DNA of 63,734 nucleotides, counting the filler, from Bonamia ostreae (taxonomy: Eukaryota): NCBI GenBank assembly GCA_040357525.1. It is 34 parts of 34 records of this genome, joined end to end, with 100 filler letters (N's around TTAATTAATTAA, not from the genome) between each part and the next. Parts side by side here need not be neighbours in the genome. Positions count along the whole stretch, not along the records: positions 52,653 to 54,418 come from JBDODL010001352.1; positions 54,519 to 56,283 come from JBDODL010001353.1; positions 56,384 to 58,147 come from JBDODL010001354.1; positions 58,248 to 60,010 come from JBDODL010001355.1; 30 more parts are not named here. The stretch is one strand, 5' to 3'. Position 1 is the stretch's first letter. Every line of letters starts with the position of its first letter. Made by a program: the position numbers. Positions 54,001-60,000 of the stretch are shown piece by piece.

Positions 54001-57000
54001 CCCCACAGAATCACTGATGTATTGAATATATATATTATTATGAAAGAGTACAGTGCAAATAAGAAAACAATATCGAAGGCAAATGGCTTGTAGCATACAT
54101 CATTCTATTCATGGAGGTTAATGATTCATAAACAGCAAAGTTTTTCAAATAAAAAAAACACTACTGAAATATACTATTGAAGCTGTCTTAATTTAAACAT
54201 TCCACAACTATTCATATAATTATGTTTGTTGGTCAACATTTTCCTGAACAACTTTCAGAAATGTAGATTTTCTGGGACATATCTCTCCCTTGTAAATACA
54301 TGTATGTACCGGTACTTCCTGTCACAGAAGTATGCATGAAGTGCATTAACAACATTACATAAATGACTCCCTTAGTATTGATGACCTGTTCACTCTTACG
54401 ATTTCGCCGTATTTTGAGNNNNNNNNNNNNNNNNNNNNNNNNNNNNNNNNNNNNNNNNNNNNTTAATTAATTAANNNNNNNNNNNNNNNNNNNNNNNNNN
54501 NNNNNNNNNNNNNNNNNNGCAAATTTTAAAAACATCGTTTTTCCCTGAAAGAAAAGCACAAATTTGCGATTTGCTCAAATTCGGAGAATTTTTCAAAAAA
54601 AGAGCGATTGATTTCGCTGTCGGCGTTTTGTCTATCACGCCAAGTTTCTTCTTGTGAATTGCAAAAACTTGGAGATAAGGAATGCTGTTTTTAGCATGCT
54701 CGTTAAAACTCGAAACAGCCAATCGCGTTTTCTTTTTGTTCTTTATGCGCTGGTCGATTTCTCTAGTTTGTTTTGATTTCTCGTTGTTTTTGAATATTTT
54801 GCTGCAAAATTTCTTTAATAACACAAAATTTCAAAAACACAAATTTTCAAAAATGCAAAATTAAACCTTTTCAATTGATCGCATTGTCGCGATTAAAGCA
54901 TCGCCGGAAATCTCACAAACCTGCAGAAAAGACCTTTTCTCCTCGCCCTTCCCGTCAAATCCAACCGACTTCAAAGCAAACTCCGAGAGGATTCTCGCGA
55001 TGTCCTCGAAAACATTATTGTTTTTAAGCTCGCAATCGTAATTCCTAAAAATCCCCGCGATCAAATCCGGCTCGTTCGCGAATTCGTTCAGACTTTCAAA
55101 CACGAGTTCTTTTAGTTCCAAAGATCGAAATTTCGATTCGGCGATCCGAATGTGCACGCTCGTGATAAAAATCTCAAGCTGCGTCTTCAGCGTCTTTCGG
55201 GACGTGTTGAACAGAATGAAGACGATGCGCAAGCACATCGACAGAATTCTGGAGTTGTCCGTCTGGCTGCAGTGCAGCAGTTGCTTGCACAGGTCATCCG
55301 AGATAACATTCCGTGTCAACTCGTTCTCGCTCATTTCTTTTCCGCCCGACTCCAACGCGGTGTGGATGAGCTTTAGCCCGAGCAACCTGCGAGTTTTAGG
55401 AGCAAACTGGTATCGCATAATGTTCTCGTCGTTGTCCAAATCGGTTCTGTACGGATTCAGCAGTTCCGTCAACAGAATCATCAAACTGTTTATCGCCTTC
55501 AAGCCGAAAGCCGTCCTTTTGCCGTTTTTCGGACTTTGGGCGGTTTCGGTGAATTTTTTCGAATGGAGTCGAGAAAAGAGGAACAAGATCTATTTTAGTC
55601 AGCGATAAATTACGGATTGGTTGGAGACGTTTTCGGCGTAAATTCTGAGAAGGGGCGAATTGGAGTTGCTAATCGCGGTCTTGAGACAAATCTAAATTCG
55701 GGTAATTTTACTTTGAACAAATCGTATATTTCCCGGTCTGTGAGGAGAGAGCCGAGGCTGCTGCGAGTGAAATCGAGGATGACTTCAATTCTCTTCATCA
55801 AGACGTGTTCGTTCTCGTTCTGCAACCGGATCAATCCGGTCGCCATCATCCGGGCGGTCTCGTCTGCCCGTCTCGACTCGGATGACAGGAAAGAGTAAAG
55901 AATGAATTTGTGAATGGACTGGAGCGCCGCCAGAACCAACGTCGATGCTAAATTAAAAGGAATGGAACTTTGGTCGTCTGTCACGATATCGATAAAAGGC
56001 GACAGAAACAAAGGGGTGTCGACTTCGTCTAGGGCTATTTACATTGTCTACAAAACAGCTATAGCCGGTGAGCTGTTCGTCGAGCAAATTAAACGCTTTG
56101 GTGATTCTGCGAGTTGTCTCGAAACTGTCCGGTATCACCAAACTGGAAAAAAGACCGCTCGGCGTTGAACGGCCGTCAATTCTGATGGTGGTCAGAATAT
56201 TGTGAATTTGCCCTTTTATGCAATGTATATTGTCGATCATTTAAGCTATAAATCGGATTATATTCTTTAATAAAAATGGTTATNNNNNNNNNNNNNNNNN
56301 NNNNNNNNNNNNNNNNNNNNNNNNNNNTTAATTAATTAANNNNNNNNNNNNNNNNNNNNNNNNNNNNNNNNNNNNNNNNNNNNTAAAACAAACAAAAACG
56401 AAAATAAAAAATTTTTAATATTTTGTAAAGCGAAAATAAACAAAATTAAAAACTGAAGATTGATTCAACTTAAATGAAACGACTCTATTCGGAAAAGCGA
56501 TTGACAAAATCACTGAAGTGCCGAAGAGACAATATCCCGAAACAACAATTTTGTTGCATTTTGGTAACATTGAAGAATCGTTTCTGTAAATTCCAAATAG
56601 TGTTCCCGTCGAAATGTTCGCTTTTATATTGGATTCGCCATCAAGCGCATCGCAATAAATATCAAATTTGGAAAAATTTTCGTCAAGATTTTTCGAGTTT
56701 TTCGGAAATTTTTCGGCGCGGAAATTGATATTTTTGACGGAATGAAGAGATTGCAAACTAGAACGAATCGTGTTTTCGGCGACATTACTTAACATTTTAA
56801 AAGTGTTTTTGTCGTTGTGGTCGCCCAAAACACCTTTTTGCGATTTATTGAATATTTTTTGTCAATTTTTTTGCAAATTATTTAAACCGGCTTTGATAAT
56901 CTGCTCCGACAAAAATTTGAATGAGACCATTAATCTCTCAATAACCTCGTTTAAATTAACAGCGTCTGAAATCTCCAATCCAGAGAATTTCTTTATTGTT

Positions 57001-60000
57001 ACCAATACATTAAATCATCGTTATTATTGATACACAAAATCTGTTAAAAACATTGATCAAATTCTTGAACAAATATTCTTCTCGATCAGAAGAATGTAGC
57101 AGTGACAATGAGCTTCTTGAAGCAAAGTTGACTTCGTTTGACAATTCTGTTTCGATTGAAGACAATTCCTTTTTGTCTGTAAAAAGACCTTTGTTTCGAA
57201 TTGGATTTTTCTTTGCACTGAAAACACTAATTTTTCTAGAACTTTTTATCGTTTTTAATTGCCAAATTTTAATATTTTTGTTCAATTAAAGAAAAATTGA
57301 TTAAAATTGCGTAAAAATTATTTTAAAGCGAAATTTTGCAAATTTTGAAAATTGCGTTTGAACTTTAATGTTTTTCTGCGAACATATCCGTCATCAAATT
57401 TAAATGGTTGTCCAATATCCAGCATCATTTCAGAAAACCATTTTTGATTTATATCAAATTTTCTGCCGCCTTTTATATGTTCCAAAGGAATCAACTCAAT
57501 TTGGTCGCTTTAAAAATTTTTTATTTAAAATTCGTCAAAATTGCCAAGTTTACAAAATTTGAAATTGACTTTTTATGTAAACAAATTTTTCTGGTTTAAC
57601 AAATCGTTGCTAAAAGTTTTTTCTGAAAATAACTTTTTATTTTCATTCGGACCGATTATCCCAGTCGATTTTTTGATAGCTTCTTTCACAGCGATTTTGC
57701 AGCAATTTTTAATTAATTTTTTGTCAAAATCGTCCGCTGCGGCGGCTCTGCAAAAATAACCGCTTTTTACAGTGACGTTCTTTTCAGAACCGATTTTAGG
57801 TCCAAAATTTTTTGCTATCCACTCTCCAACATTTATCTATTATTTTTTGTTGTTACAAGTACTTTTGCGCAACAATGAAATTTTAGTTCAAAAAACATTA
57901 GATAGTCGAATGTTGCCACTTTGATCTCTTTCGACTTTCTTTCCACTGTTTTCTAATTGCTTTGTTATCATTGGAACACAAGCTCCTTCACTTACAAAAA
58001 TATTGACACATCCGATTTTGCTCATTATGTCGCGCAGTCTTTTGACTTCAAGTTCAAAATTTATTTCCATTTCTGGTAAATAAATGGCGTGGATGTCTCT
58101 TTTGTAATCTGTTCCTTCAATTTTTTTAATGTCGTCGAAGAAAAATANNNNNNNNNNNNNNNNNNNNNNNNNNNNNNNNNNNNNNNNNNNNTTAATTAAT
58201 TAANNNNNNNNNNNNNNNNNNNNNNNNNNNNNNNNNNNNNNNNNNNNAAAATCCTCGTCATTTATATCCAAAACCACATCTTAATGAAAAATTAATGATG
58301 AAATATATTAATTTATTCTATGATGAAATATTAAATATAAACAAAAATTAATTTTGTCTATATCTTAATGATGAAAAATTCTGTCATTTATCTTTAAGAG
58401 ATAAATTTTATATCTTAATGAAAATCTTCATTATGAACATTCAAATATCACCCGGTTTTATTGCATATTTTCCTTCCGTTTGGGCATAATGCTCTCTCTT
58501 GGAATGCCTTCTGAAAATAAATAGGACAAATAGGCAAATAATAGTTGTCACACCACAGAATATTTCCATGAACAAAGCGATGAAATATAGAACGGAAAAA
58601 GAGCACTCGAAATCGTCAGTTGAAAAAAAGCTGTTGTTTTTGTCGTGAATCCCGAATTTATTGTTGTTGCAATACATTCGAATTGGGGTGTTTATAAAGA
58701 CTTTGTTCAGAGACGGTTGTTCTGGCACAAGACAATTAATTCCGAAATCAACAAAATCCCCGTTCTGAAAACCTGAATCTTTGAAAGAGTGAGCGACATA
58801 TATTTTTGAGTCAGTCGGCAATTTGCAAATTGATAAAACGCCATTAATCAAAAACAAAAAATTGAAGAAACACATTTTATCAGAATAACAAAGAATTTGT
58901 ACGTTGTTGAGGGTTTGTGTTTATTTTATGCGCAAACTTAATTTTTGATTTAATTTTTTAGGAGCATACTTAATTTATAACTTTTTGTCGATTTTGCTAC
59001 TTTTTATAAGATCTACTTTTTATAAGATCTACTTTTTATAAGATCTACTTTTTGCATACATTTAATTTATAAGATTTGTACTGTTTAATAGTGTTAATTG
59101 CTTTTTGTCGATGAAACTTACATTTTGCTATGTTAAAAATTTTAAGGAATAACAAAAGTATGTCGATGCCGACATAATCGGTTTAGACTTTTGGAGTCAA
59201 AACTTTAGACTACACTTAATAAAATTAGCACTACAAAAATTAGCCATAATGGACGCGACATTTGCAATCACGGGGAAAGACTTTGTGCTTTTCGCTAGCG
59301 ATTCAAGCGTCAGAATTTCAATCAAAAAGATGAAACTGAATCAGAGAAAAACGATAGAACTCGACGACAACAAAATGATCGGTTCTTTTGATCCAAATTA
59401 AAGCATGGAACGGGAAACCGTCGGACGCTCTAAATTTTGCTGATTTTGTATCTAGAAGCCATTTTCTCTACACTATTAGAAACGGATTTCCAATGTCCGT
59501 AAAAGCTTCGGCACATTTCATAAGAAACGAGTTGGCCAGAGCAGTGCGAAAGTCTCCCGTGGAAACAAATATAATGATTGGCGGCGTTGACGAATCCGGC
59601 TCGAGCTTATACTACCTCGACTACATGGGCTCGATTAACAAGTTGAACGTTGCTGCGCACGGCTACTGTGCATTCTTTGTGACGAGCATTTTAGACAGAA
59701 GTTGGAAAGAGGATTTGGAACGCGAAGAGGCGCTGGAAATGGCCAAACGTTGTGTGGAAGAACTGGGACAGCGTTTTACGCTATCTCTGGACAATTTTGA
59801 ATTTTGCTTTGTGACAAAGGACGGCGCTCAAAGAATCGAGTAATAAACATTGTTTAGTACTTTCATTTATATGAATCTCATATATTCATGTTGCTGGAAA
59901 ATCTGTTTGTTTGAAAATGGATAAAATGGTGAATATATTTTCGTTTGTGAAGAGGATAAGTAACGTTTTTCAGTCAACTGAGATTTAATCAAATCTCTCT

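Follow-up and report, generated by a model that had tools for sequence, protein, structure and literature searches.

The window, a 63,734-nucleotide stretch of Bonamia ostreae DNA (filler included), is an assembly of unrelated small contigs, and the gene described here is confined to one of them, positions 56384–58147 (1764 bp), where it lies on the minus strand. The gene enters this contig within an intron, whose 3′ end occupies 58115–58147; the acceptor AG is at 58116–58115, and the boundary can be placed only to within 2 nt ('AG' is common to the genome and the cDNA-like contig discussed below). A first exon, 57897–58114 (..TDYKRDIHAIYLPE..NIFVSEGA..RLSN), is separated by a 60-nt intron (57837–57896, phase 0, GC 0.25) from a second, 57634–57836 (INVGEWIAKNF..VKSGYFCRAAAADDFD..), which is followed by a 126-nt intron (57508–57633, phase 2, GC 0.21). 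The third exon, 57364–57507, carries the end of a phosphofructokinase (PFK) domain (..KGGRKF..MMLDIGQP) and the first 14 residues of a linker (FKFDDGYVRRKTL-). Beyond it lies a 122-nt intron (57242–57363, phase 2, GC 0.20), inside which the sole in-frame stop, TAA 57320–57318, is found.

The linker exon, 57052–57241, consists of one base and 63 codons, is rich in Ser, Lys, Arg, and Asn, and lacks Met; the fold of a fructose-1,6-bisphosphatase (FBPase) starts in its last ~13 residues (EEYLFKNLIN). Across a 61-nt intron (56991–57051, phase 0, GC 0.23), the exon 56888–56990 supplies the first long helix of this fold (..LMVSFKFLSEQIIKAG), and across a 54-nt intron (56834–56887, phase 1, GC 0.19), the exon 56454–56833 contains a degenerate catalytic loop, with FRAEK replacing SEE, the conserved metal motif DALDGESN, and the beta-sheet core. 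The start of a further intron (56384–56453, donor GT 56453–56452) ends the contig, so that the remainder of the FBPase-like domain is off it. The complete introns are all GT..AG, with a GC content of 0.19–0.25 versus 0.346 for the exons, and the six joined exons amount to 1236 nt, or 412 codons, without a stop.

Splice joints and reading frame

These boundaries were obtained from a 2314-nt contig of the public run X4, which aligns to the locus with five GT..AG joints (CT..AC on the plus strand) at 57836/57897, 57507/57634, 57241/57364, 56990/57052, and 56831/56886 (cut +2) and omits all five complete introns. The run kind of X4 is a tentative 'RNA?' label, and its sequence is readable only as 30-nt loose ends. 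The X4 contig continues beyond the genome contig by 728 nt upstream and 346 nt downstream, departing from it at 58116 (30-nt loose end) and at 56454; as read by eye from the loose end, the downstream extension stays in the FBPase-like frame for at least its first 10 codons. DNA contigs from runs X1 (56384–57674) and X2 (56431–58147) retain the introns and show no joints. In the mRNA-like contig, splicing thus removes the PFK stop and leaves a frame that continues into the FBPase-like domain. Joints, the PPi-PFK model match, and BLASTP together support the three PFK exons; the linker exon is supported by joints, the helix exon by joints and a PF00316 match, and the last exon by that match and alignments.

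The original prediction had proposed three of these introns, and the X4 joints reproduce them exactly, adding two in the PFK part. Its donor (AA|GT at 57363), acceptor (AG|T at 57242), and intervening TAA were read directly and computed, the coordinates of the two shorter introns and of the exon end at 56454 hold, and removal of the introns takes out the only stop and leaves the frame open. A stretch that it had read as protein, 'FFDDIKKIEG', did not survive: the contig-end bases from 58147 to ~58115 (31–33) are intron, X4 leaving the genome at 58116.

Domain assignment and a foraminiferal counterpart

The upstream part matches the model of the Propionibacterium-type PPi-dependent PFK, NF005121 (PRK06555; 404 positions, curated whole-protein cut-off 395 bits), with an E value of 8.3e-49 and 166.4 bits when introns are read as X. 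This match covers model positions 229–364 and a second stretch, the contig carrying just the final ~43% of the domain; PF00365 gave no match at E ≤ 1 for the window pieces, which hold only the C-terminal end of that domain. C-terminal substrate-site residues are kept (NIFVSEGA with the SEGA Glu, and VKSGYFCRAA with K-S-G-Y-x-x-R), and 39 of the 54 columns invariant in seven related PFKs are retained, SEGA and KSGYxxR among them. The phosphoryl-donor motif, GGDD for PPi and GGDG for ATP, would lie upstream of the contig. The downstream part matches PF00316 (E 1.1e-15, 58.2 bits versus a gathering score of 34.8, model 19–181 of 191), a single FBPase-like exon scoring 49.8 bits, and the class 1 FBPase model NF006778 (1.7e-14, 53.3 bits for the partial domain).

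The same PFK-then-FBPase layout was found in a full-length protein of the foraminifer Nonionella stella, P0006 (762 aa), which contains PF00365, PF00316, and PF18913 (146.9 bits); the window protein and P0006 are the only two fused sequences found. P0006 scores 610.5 bits against NF005121 over model 4–400, above the cut-off, matches PF00365 over residues 9–353 (4.1e-38), and carries GGDD (..HTIGGDDTN..). Its FBPase-like domain scores 2e-69 against solved animal FBPases and 289.1 bits against NF006778, below the equivalog cut-off of 368. An AlphaFold model shows both domains folded, the FBPase-like part mostly at pLDDT >90, and the linker (408–445) without secondary structure at pLDDT <50. The two proteins are 33% identical and align in a single collinear HSP through PFK, linker, and FBPase (q6–409/s236–624, 3e-67). 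Gaps of 20 and 42 residues in the BLASTP comparison coincide with introns 57837–57896 (exactly) and 57508–57633. Neither the FBPase tree nor the PFK tree showed the two fused proteins as each other's closest relatives.

Could the locus nevertheless encode two proteins, with PFK ending at TAA 57318, FBPase on its own message, and the X4 contig either a minor splice form or a merger of transcripts that overlap or read through? Because 15 of the 106 GT..AG pairs (32–300 nt, within 57507–57052) also yield an open in-phase join, sequence alone is not decisive, and the splicing was decided by the X4 contig. Logan contigs lose rare variants and show neither transcript ends nor abundance, and an unspliced 151-nt piece from X5 (run kind not given) covers 57216–57366, across this intron. 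Against two proteins, the joint 57241/57364 is present and unambiguous, its shorter side being 144 nt long, and a separate FBPase would be without an ordinary start, because no Met codon occurs in frame from the end of PFK to the first FBPase helix; the first Met past IGQP comes 97 residues on, within that helix, where the original prediction had placed it. The same continuous ORF exists in N. stella, and the alignment with P0006 passes through the linker. We therefore regard separate proteins as very improbable. A single contig that covers both coding parts is not proof of full length for all molecules, and a message retaining the 57363–57242 intron and ending at TAA 57318 may coexist; such retention would give a stand-alone PFK. 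The joints and profile matches bear out the predicted architecture, a single spliced message in which the reading frame of a Propionibacterium-type PPi-PFK continues into a class I FBPase-like domain, and a fused message and protein very probably exist.

Catalytic residues of the FBPase-like domain

We compared the FBPase-like domains with 105 reference FBPases (pig numbering) using MAFFT and, independently, hmmalign. Residues E97, E98, D74, and D68 are what we take to be the metal-binding and catalytic acids, and the roles of E97, E98, D74, and R276 are assumed from the pig-kidney FBPase literature. The two alignments agree that E97 (E in 100 references) is R in the window and Q in P0006, although an ungapped alignment could place one Glu of the window's 'RAEK' at this position; that E98 (E in 98) is A and Y; and that D74 (D in 99) is S and N. 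R276 (R in 96) is G in P0006. D68 (D/E in 97) is N in the window and E in P0006, calls at D68 and N64 being uncertain since loop 52–72 aligns poorly. D118, D121, G122, and N125 are kept in both (DALDGESN in the window, DPLDGVSN in P0006), S123 being replaced by E and V, respectively. P0006 also keeps the 6-phosphate pocket (N212, Y215, R243, Y244, Y264, and K274) and E280.

These residues offer no support for a bifunctional glycolysis/gluconeogenesis switch, as had originally been suggested. Were PPi-PFK and FBPase both active in one polypeptide, they would set the F6P/FBP direction and, running together, form a regulated cycle that consumes PPi (net PPi + H2O → 2 Pi). The fusion itself, the metal motif D118-x-L-D121-G-x-S-N125 kept in both species, and the E280, entire 6-phosphate pocket, and closeness to animal FBPases of the N. 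stella domain are consistent with this; the basic linker sites RRKT and RKIS, present in the sequence as predicted, could gate one half, a kinase-type role for them being speculation. However, both proteins have other residues in place of the acids at 97, 98, and 74, and the N. stella domain also lacks R276 and falls below its equivalog cut-off. PPi-PFK is moreover reversible, so a fused hydrolase would add only a futile cycle. The available part of PMC12203962 makes the same point. Two active halves thus appear unlikely, although D118, D121, and E280 leave room for residual or altered phosphatase activity.

A real fusion with a functionless, decaying passenger, arising by neutral read-through after stop loss, would also account for the lost catalytic residues and for the divergence of the window domain, whose best relative scores 1.1e-16, the one match at ≤1e-10 among 1.84 billion representatives. 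Yet two species with proteins only 33% identical share the layout, fold-defining and ligand-pocket residues are retained, the N. stella domain is modeled with high confidence, and the frame is open through three more exons and past the contig end. A passenger is accordingly a poor candidate, less probable than two active halves.

A putative regulatory module and its precedents

On balance, we favor as the likeliest explanation a PPi-PFK whose FBPase-like domain is non-catalytic and binds a ligand or oligomerises. A single gene in an AT-rich, intron-bearing genome would give a single polypeptide with an N-terminal Propionibacterium-type PPi-dependent 6-phosphofructokinase, a flexible Ser/Lys/Arg-rich linker of about 50–70 residues, and a divergent class I FBPase-like domain. 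The PFK half would be a working enzyme (F6P + PPi ↔ FBP + Pi). Judging from its residues, the FBPase-like half is probably non-catalytic: with other residues at the positions of E97, E98, D74, and (in N. stella) R276, it would no longer hydrolyze FBP in the canonical way. From the kept fold, D118/D121/G122/N125, and the N. stella 6-phosphate pocket, it may instead serve an otherwise non-allosteric PPi-PFK as a regulatory or oligomerising module that binds sugar phosphates, much as the dead C-terminal half of eukaryotic ATP-PFK turned into an effector site. More tentatively, foraminifera may have made the enzyme of the opposing reaction a built-in sensor, in which the dead FBPase domain binds FBP, F6P, F2,6BP, or AMP and switches a reversible PPi-PFK, unregulated in other respects, between glycolytic and gluconeogenic operation through tetramer-forming surfaces and a phosphorylatable linker; if true, this would represent a new way of controlling PPi-based glycolysis allosterically in anoxia-tolerant protists.

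Each half resembles known proteins. The N-terminal half shares SEGA and KSGYxxR with the short, non-allosteric Propionibacterium-type PPi-PFKs (EC 2.7.1.90), whose known members are stand-alone and about 400 aa long, whereas the fusion has ~360 extra C-terminal residues (linker and FBPase-like). Class I FBPases (PF00316 + PF18913; pig/human FBP1, 1cnq, 4gww) share the fold and a DPLDGSSN-type metal motif; in contrast, the domain in the fusion sits behind PFK, has the above replacements, and lies below NCBIfam equivalog cut-offs. PFK-2/FBPase-2 is a conceptual precedent, in which a single chain combines a kinase and a phosphatase acting on one sugar pair. Its folds, a P-loop kinase and a histidine phosphatase, and its substrate position (C2) are, however, unrelated, and the 6PF2K and histidine-phosphatase Pfam families had no match in the window pieces or P0006.

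Reuse of a disabled metabolic-enzyme part as a PFK regulatory module is seen in tandem-duplicated eukaryotic ATP-PFK, whose C-terminal half provides effector sites, and in plant PFP, in which alpha is the regulatory and beta the catalytic subunit. In both, the module is a PFK paralogue, whereas the fusion draws it from the enzyme that catalyzes the opposing reaction. The accessible portion of PMC12203962 describes the history of PFK duplication and fusion. Protist fusions of neighboring central-carbon steps, TPI-GAPDH (stramenopiles, Paulinella) and PGDH-PSAT, are covered in the excerpted text of PMC5715807, which does not mention a PFK-FBPase fusion; unlike the latter, they link successive steps that run in one direction, and both of their halves are active.

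In keeping with the original expectation, our literature search found no paper describing a PPi-PFK/FBPase-like fusion. Propionibacterium-type PPi-PFKs are regarded as reversible and non-allosteric, and control of flux direction in organisms that depend on them is an open question. In its available part, the 2025 review PMC12203962 considers the use of PPi-PFK for both directions in any organism still unknown and expects regulation to rest on new domain fusions. A PPi-PFK permanently tied to a disabled FBPase would, if confirmed, be a concrete, testable regulatory device and a clear added case of a pseudoenzyme domain recruited from an antagonistic enzyme. PPi-PFK expression is reported in foraminifera, a group in which PPi-based metabolism that tolerates anoxia is being actively studied (PMC11736642 and PMC13561418, as excerpted). 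In foraminiferal transcriptomes, a 'PPi-PFK' call and an 'FBPase' call may refer to one protein, and scoring the fused FBPase as gluconeogenic capacity may be wrong.

A further sequence, P0187, is a PPase-FBPase-like fusion. It hints that FBPase-like sensor domains may be joined to other PPi enzymes too.

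Splicing of the gene

The gene lies on the minus strand of a 1764-bp contig (56384-58147). The upstream open frame ends in ..MMLDIGQPFKFDDGYVRRKTLKFKRNFQNLQNFALK with a TAA stop at 57320-57318, within a 122-nt GT..AG segment (57363-57242, minus strand). This segment is followed on the same strand by an exon of 190 nt (57241-57052), a GT..AG segment directly downstream of it (57051-56991) and another one (56887-56834), after which comes the exon called FBPase by Pfam. The sequence agrees with the original prediction on all of these elements, and also on the lack of a Met in the 63-codon linker exon, the first Met being found 97 residues past IGQP. 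The first ten residues of the original translation are non-coding, since the contig end (58147-58115, minus strand) is the 3′ end of an intron with its acceptor AG at 58116-58115. When the six exons were joined by script, 1236 nt or 412 codons with 0 stops were obtained; the introns have a GC content of 0.19-0.25 versus 0.346 for the exons. In a control covering 57507 to 57052, 106 GT..AG pairs spaced 32-300 nt were counted, and 15 of them also gave an open in-phase join, so that the sequence alone is insufficient to settle the splicing.

We then consulted public sequencing runs, 24 of which are listed for this contig. At least part of it occurs in six, of which X1, X2, X4 and X5 were aligned to it; none is recorded as RNA, and X4 is guessed to be so. 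Contigs from such runs report presence rather than abundance or ends, and rare variants are dropped from them. X4 contains a single contig of 2314 nt (record 16), which shows one A>G difference and aligns to the window in six pieces. Its five joints, all on the minus strand, are at 56834-56887 (54 nt, cut +2), 56991-57051 (61 nt), 57242-57363 (122 nt), 57508-57633 (126 nt) and 57837-57896 (60 nt), and each reads CT..AC on the plus strand, which is GT..AG on the gene strand. The three downstream joints coincide exactly with the three introns predicted from sequence; the proposed junction of 57364 with 57241 is thus present in X4, which is RNA by guess. The DNA contigs from X1 (56384-57674) and X2 (56431-58147) cross the intron sites continuously and show no joint there, which means that the genomic form is not the spliced one. 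One spliced message encodes PFK, linker and FBPase-like domain, and the fusion is real at this level. A ciliate-type code, in which TAA would be a sense codon, was rejected as an explanation of the stop because the stop sits in a spliced-out intron.

The X4 contig extends 728 nt past 58116 and 346 nt past 56454, and at either side its 30-nt loose end, read by eye, stays in frame and free of stops. Judging by homology with P0006, a full-length fused protein from Nonionella stella, the upstream extension would be about long enough for the whole PFK N-terminus and a short leader, and the downstream one would end roughly 20-25 residues short of the end of the FBPase domain. A 151-nt unspliced piece (57216-57366) across the 122-nt intron was seen in X5, a run of unrecorded kind; if X5 is RNA, this would represent intron retention, leading to a stand-alone PFK. 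The runs also differ from the window at single positions: 57094 A>G in X1 and X2; 57324 T>A in X1, X2 and X5; 57181 A>G only in the spliced X4 contig; and, confined to X2, 57660, 57714 and an extra TT after 58120. Variation between strains or alleles, or editing, could account for them.

Identity of the two halves and a second fused protein

Because the introns of 60, 126 and 54 nt have lengths divisible by three, the PFK part (P0001) and the FBPase part (P0002) could be translated straight through them, intron stops being written as X. P0001 matches NF005121, the 404-position NCBIfam equivalog model for Propionibacterium-type PPi-PFK, with an E-value of 8.3e-49 and 166 bits over model positions 229-364 plus a second stretch. 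Among Pfam, PDB and NCBIfam, only this model recognized the PFK part: the single PFK exons, which are too short, gave no match in Pfam or PDB, P0001 gave none in PDB, and PF00365, which does not extend to the C-terminal piece, did not match P0001. The FBPase exon matches PF00316 at 4.2e-13, and P0002 does so at 1.1e-15 with 58.2 bits (cut-off 34.8) over model positions 19-181 of 191. P0002 also matches class 1 FBPase models in NCBIfam, and the exon alone finds the solved pig and human FBPases in the PDB at 2e-08. Both halves had been named correctly from the sequence, as judged by NF005121 and PF00316. In its visible part, the PFK half appears intact: it contains SEGA and KSGYxxR and keeps 39 of 54 columns that are invariant across seven relatives.

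A search with P0001 among longer proteins yielded 8 matches from 1535 candidates, one of which is P0006, listed in EukProt under the foraminifer N. stella. This 762-residue protein comprises PF00365 (9-353), PF00316 (460-635) and PF18913 (639-757), scores 610 bits against NF005121 (over the cut-off of 395) and has the GGDD motif. In BLASTP, the alignment of P0001 to P0006 is interrupted at the two PFK introns by gaps that measure exactly 20 and 42 residues, and the spliced window protein gives one collinear HSP running through PFK, linker and FBPase (query 6-409, subject 236-624, 33% identity, 3e-67). The layout is common to two organisms, one of them a foraminifer, and the searches described below revealed no further fused protein. 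Two other proteins, P0004 (907 residues, JGI) and P0005 (913 residues, EukProt Dinoflagellata sp. MGD), are tandem PFK-PFK proteins with two complete Propionibacterium-type PPi-PFK units per chain; PF00365 occurs twice, both times with GGDD, and NF005121 matches with 1317 bits in two stretches.

When the linker and FBPase domain of P0006 were searched against proteins of 419-1334 residues, a PFK domain was found, among 27 matches, solely in P0006 itself. Scanning 1.84 billion representatives with P0002 in HMMER returned 155 matches at E ≤ 1e-3; no fused form was seen in the best 150 of these, none of which is placed behind a PFK-sized N-terminus. Two long matches, P0050 and P0088, were discarded as fused forms, as their layouts are unrelated. 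A word-index search of longer proteins with the FBPase exon gave 178 candidates, none of which scored, and when metagenome contigs were scanned with the window/P0012 alignment, 0 of 125 pattern matches were confirmed. P0012, the one match at ≤ 1e-10 in the representative scan and the sequence closest to the FBPase-like exon of the window (1.1e-16, 46-49% identity), is a 101-residue gene call on a 4152-nt Logan contig. It continues into non-homologous residues past an ..NxSS boundary at which the window exon ends, and looks like the same exon, unspliced, in a related organism. A quick FBPase tree (110 rows) and a PFK tree (10 rows) place the window's rows on long branches; the two fusions may have one origin or separate ones.

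In line with the original prediction, which treated this architecture as not known to have been described, we found no description of a PFK-FBPase fusion in the open-access papers searched, where those matched by the paired enzyme names dealt with futile cycling. Excerpts of a 2025 review of the PFK superfamily describe the duplication of PFK in tandem and an N-terminal domain in yeast and name no FBPase fusion (PMC12203962), and those of a survey of stramenopile and rhizarian glycolysis give only TPI-GAPDH and PGDH-PSAT as fusions (PMC5715807). Two accounts of PPi-PFK expression in foraminifera mention no fused domain in the portions available (PMC11736642, PMC13561418).

Catalytic residues and possible role of the FBPase-like domain

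We aligned the FBPase-like domains of the window and P0006, together with P0012, P0015 and P0187, with 105 reference FBPases, comprising 90 of the 148 matches P0014-P0161 (those of 270-420 residues; shorter and longer ones were dropped) and 15 from the P0006 linker and FBPase search. Columns were read via the motifs of P0165 in pig-kidney numbering, and the roles of D74, E97, E98, D68, R276 and other residues are those described in the pig-kidney FBPase literature. D74 (D in 99/105 references) is S in the window and N in P0006; E97 (E in 100/105) is R and Q, respectively; E98 (E in 98/105) is A and Y. D68 (D/E in 97/105) is N in the window and E in P0006, the loop at about 64-72 aligning poorly. 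R276 (R in 96/105) is off the contig in the window and G in P0006. The residues at D74, E97, E98 and R276 came out identically when the sequences were independently placed by hmmalign on a profile built from the references. One Glu of the window's FRAEK could fall at position 97 if the alignment is ungapped, so that at most one of the two glutamates would survive. The conserved D118, L120, D121, G122 and N125 are kept in both proteins, S123 gives way to E in the window and to V in P0006, and N212, Y215, R243, Y244, Y264, K274 and E280, also conserved in the references, are kept in P0006 and off the contig in the window. The FBPase-like domain of P0006 scores 289 bits versus an NCBIfam equivalog cut-off of 368.

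These replacements bear on the proposal that one polypeptide switches between glycolysis and gluconeogenesis. Its premise, the fusion, is borne out by the spliced X4 contig; a PPi-PFK whose FBPase-like domain is disabled is more likely than a bifunctional enzyme with both halves active, as catalytic residues are replaced. Moreover, an active FBPase fused to a reversible PPi-PFK would do no more than consume PPi (PPi + H2O → 2 Pi), an argument by which loss of catalysis makes biochemical sense. The FBPase-like domain is probably disabled and regulatory, to judge from its residues. The PFK half would catalyze the reversible PPi-dependent step, and the FBPase-like half, with metal-binding glutamates and general base lost and sugar-phosphate pocket and fold kept, would bind instead of hydrolyzing and may serve as a sensor or oligomerization module.

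AlphaFold modeling of P0006 on an alignment of 46 rows (mean pLDDT 80.2) gives both domains as folded, and the linker (408-445) has a pLDDT below 50 and no secondary structure. The window's linker spans 67 residues from IGQP to the first FBPase helix, 51% of them S, T, N, K or R. A predicted complex of the two halves of P0006 scored 0.00, which, having no controls, speaks neither for nor against docking.

Two Logan contigs encode further FBPase-like domains. P0015 (372 residues) is a stand-alone protein with E97→Q and R276→G, both common to the fused N. stella domain, and E98→S; D74 is kept. P0187 (710 residues) joins an inorganic pyrophosphatase domain (PF00719; NF001886, 1.4e-16) to an FBPase-like domain that is more degenerate still, with D118→N, D121→V and replacements at E97, E98 and D74; it is, after the PFK fusion, the second example of a PPi enzyme carrying an FBPase-like module.

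Other features of the window

The 63.7-kb window is a non-continuous chain of about 34 contigs of about 1.76-1.79 kb, sorted by falling size and separated by spacers of the form N44-TTAATTAATTAA-N44, with an overall GC content of about 0.30. Genes adjacent across spacers are not genome neighbors, and these unrelated contigs of about 1.8 kb were rejected as context for the fusion gene. The sole Rfam/ARAGORN match in the window is a tRNA-Ile with anticodon AAT (18565-18637, minus strand). Elsewhere in the window, parts of ordinary eukaryotic genes were recognized by eye: an RNA polymerase II second-subunit fragment (31999-32562), a WD40 coronin-like protein (2137-2853) and a dicarboxylate/amino-acid:cation symporter-like ORF (45775-46785), all on the minus strand. 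An 18-nt unit repeated 21 times with 83% matches (1396-1779) has open frames on both strands, encoding hexapeptide repeats rich in Q/N/R/F or L/V/K/I. A 96-nt unit, a multiple of 3, is present in 2.6 copies with 99% identity at 16643-16894 and is possibly a coding repeat, and a perfect 16-nt repeat of 3.6 copies (58997-59053) lies on the contig that adjoins that of the fusion gene in the window.
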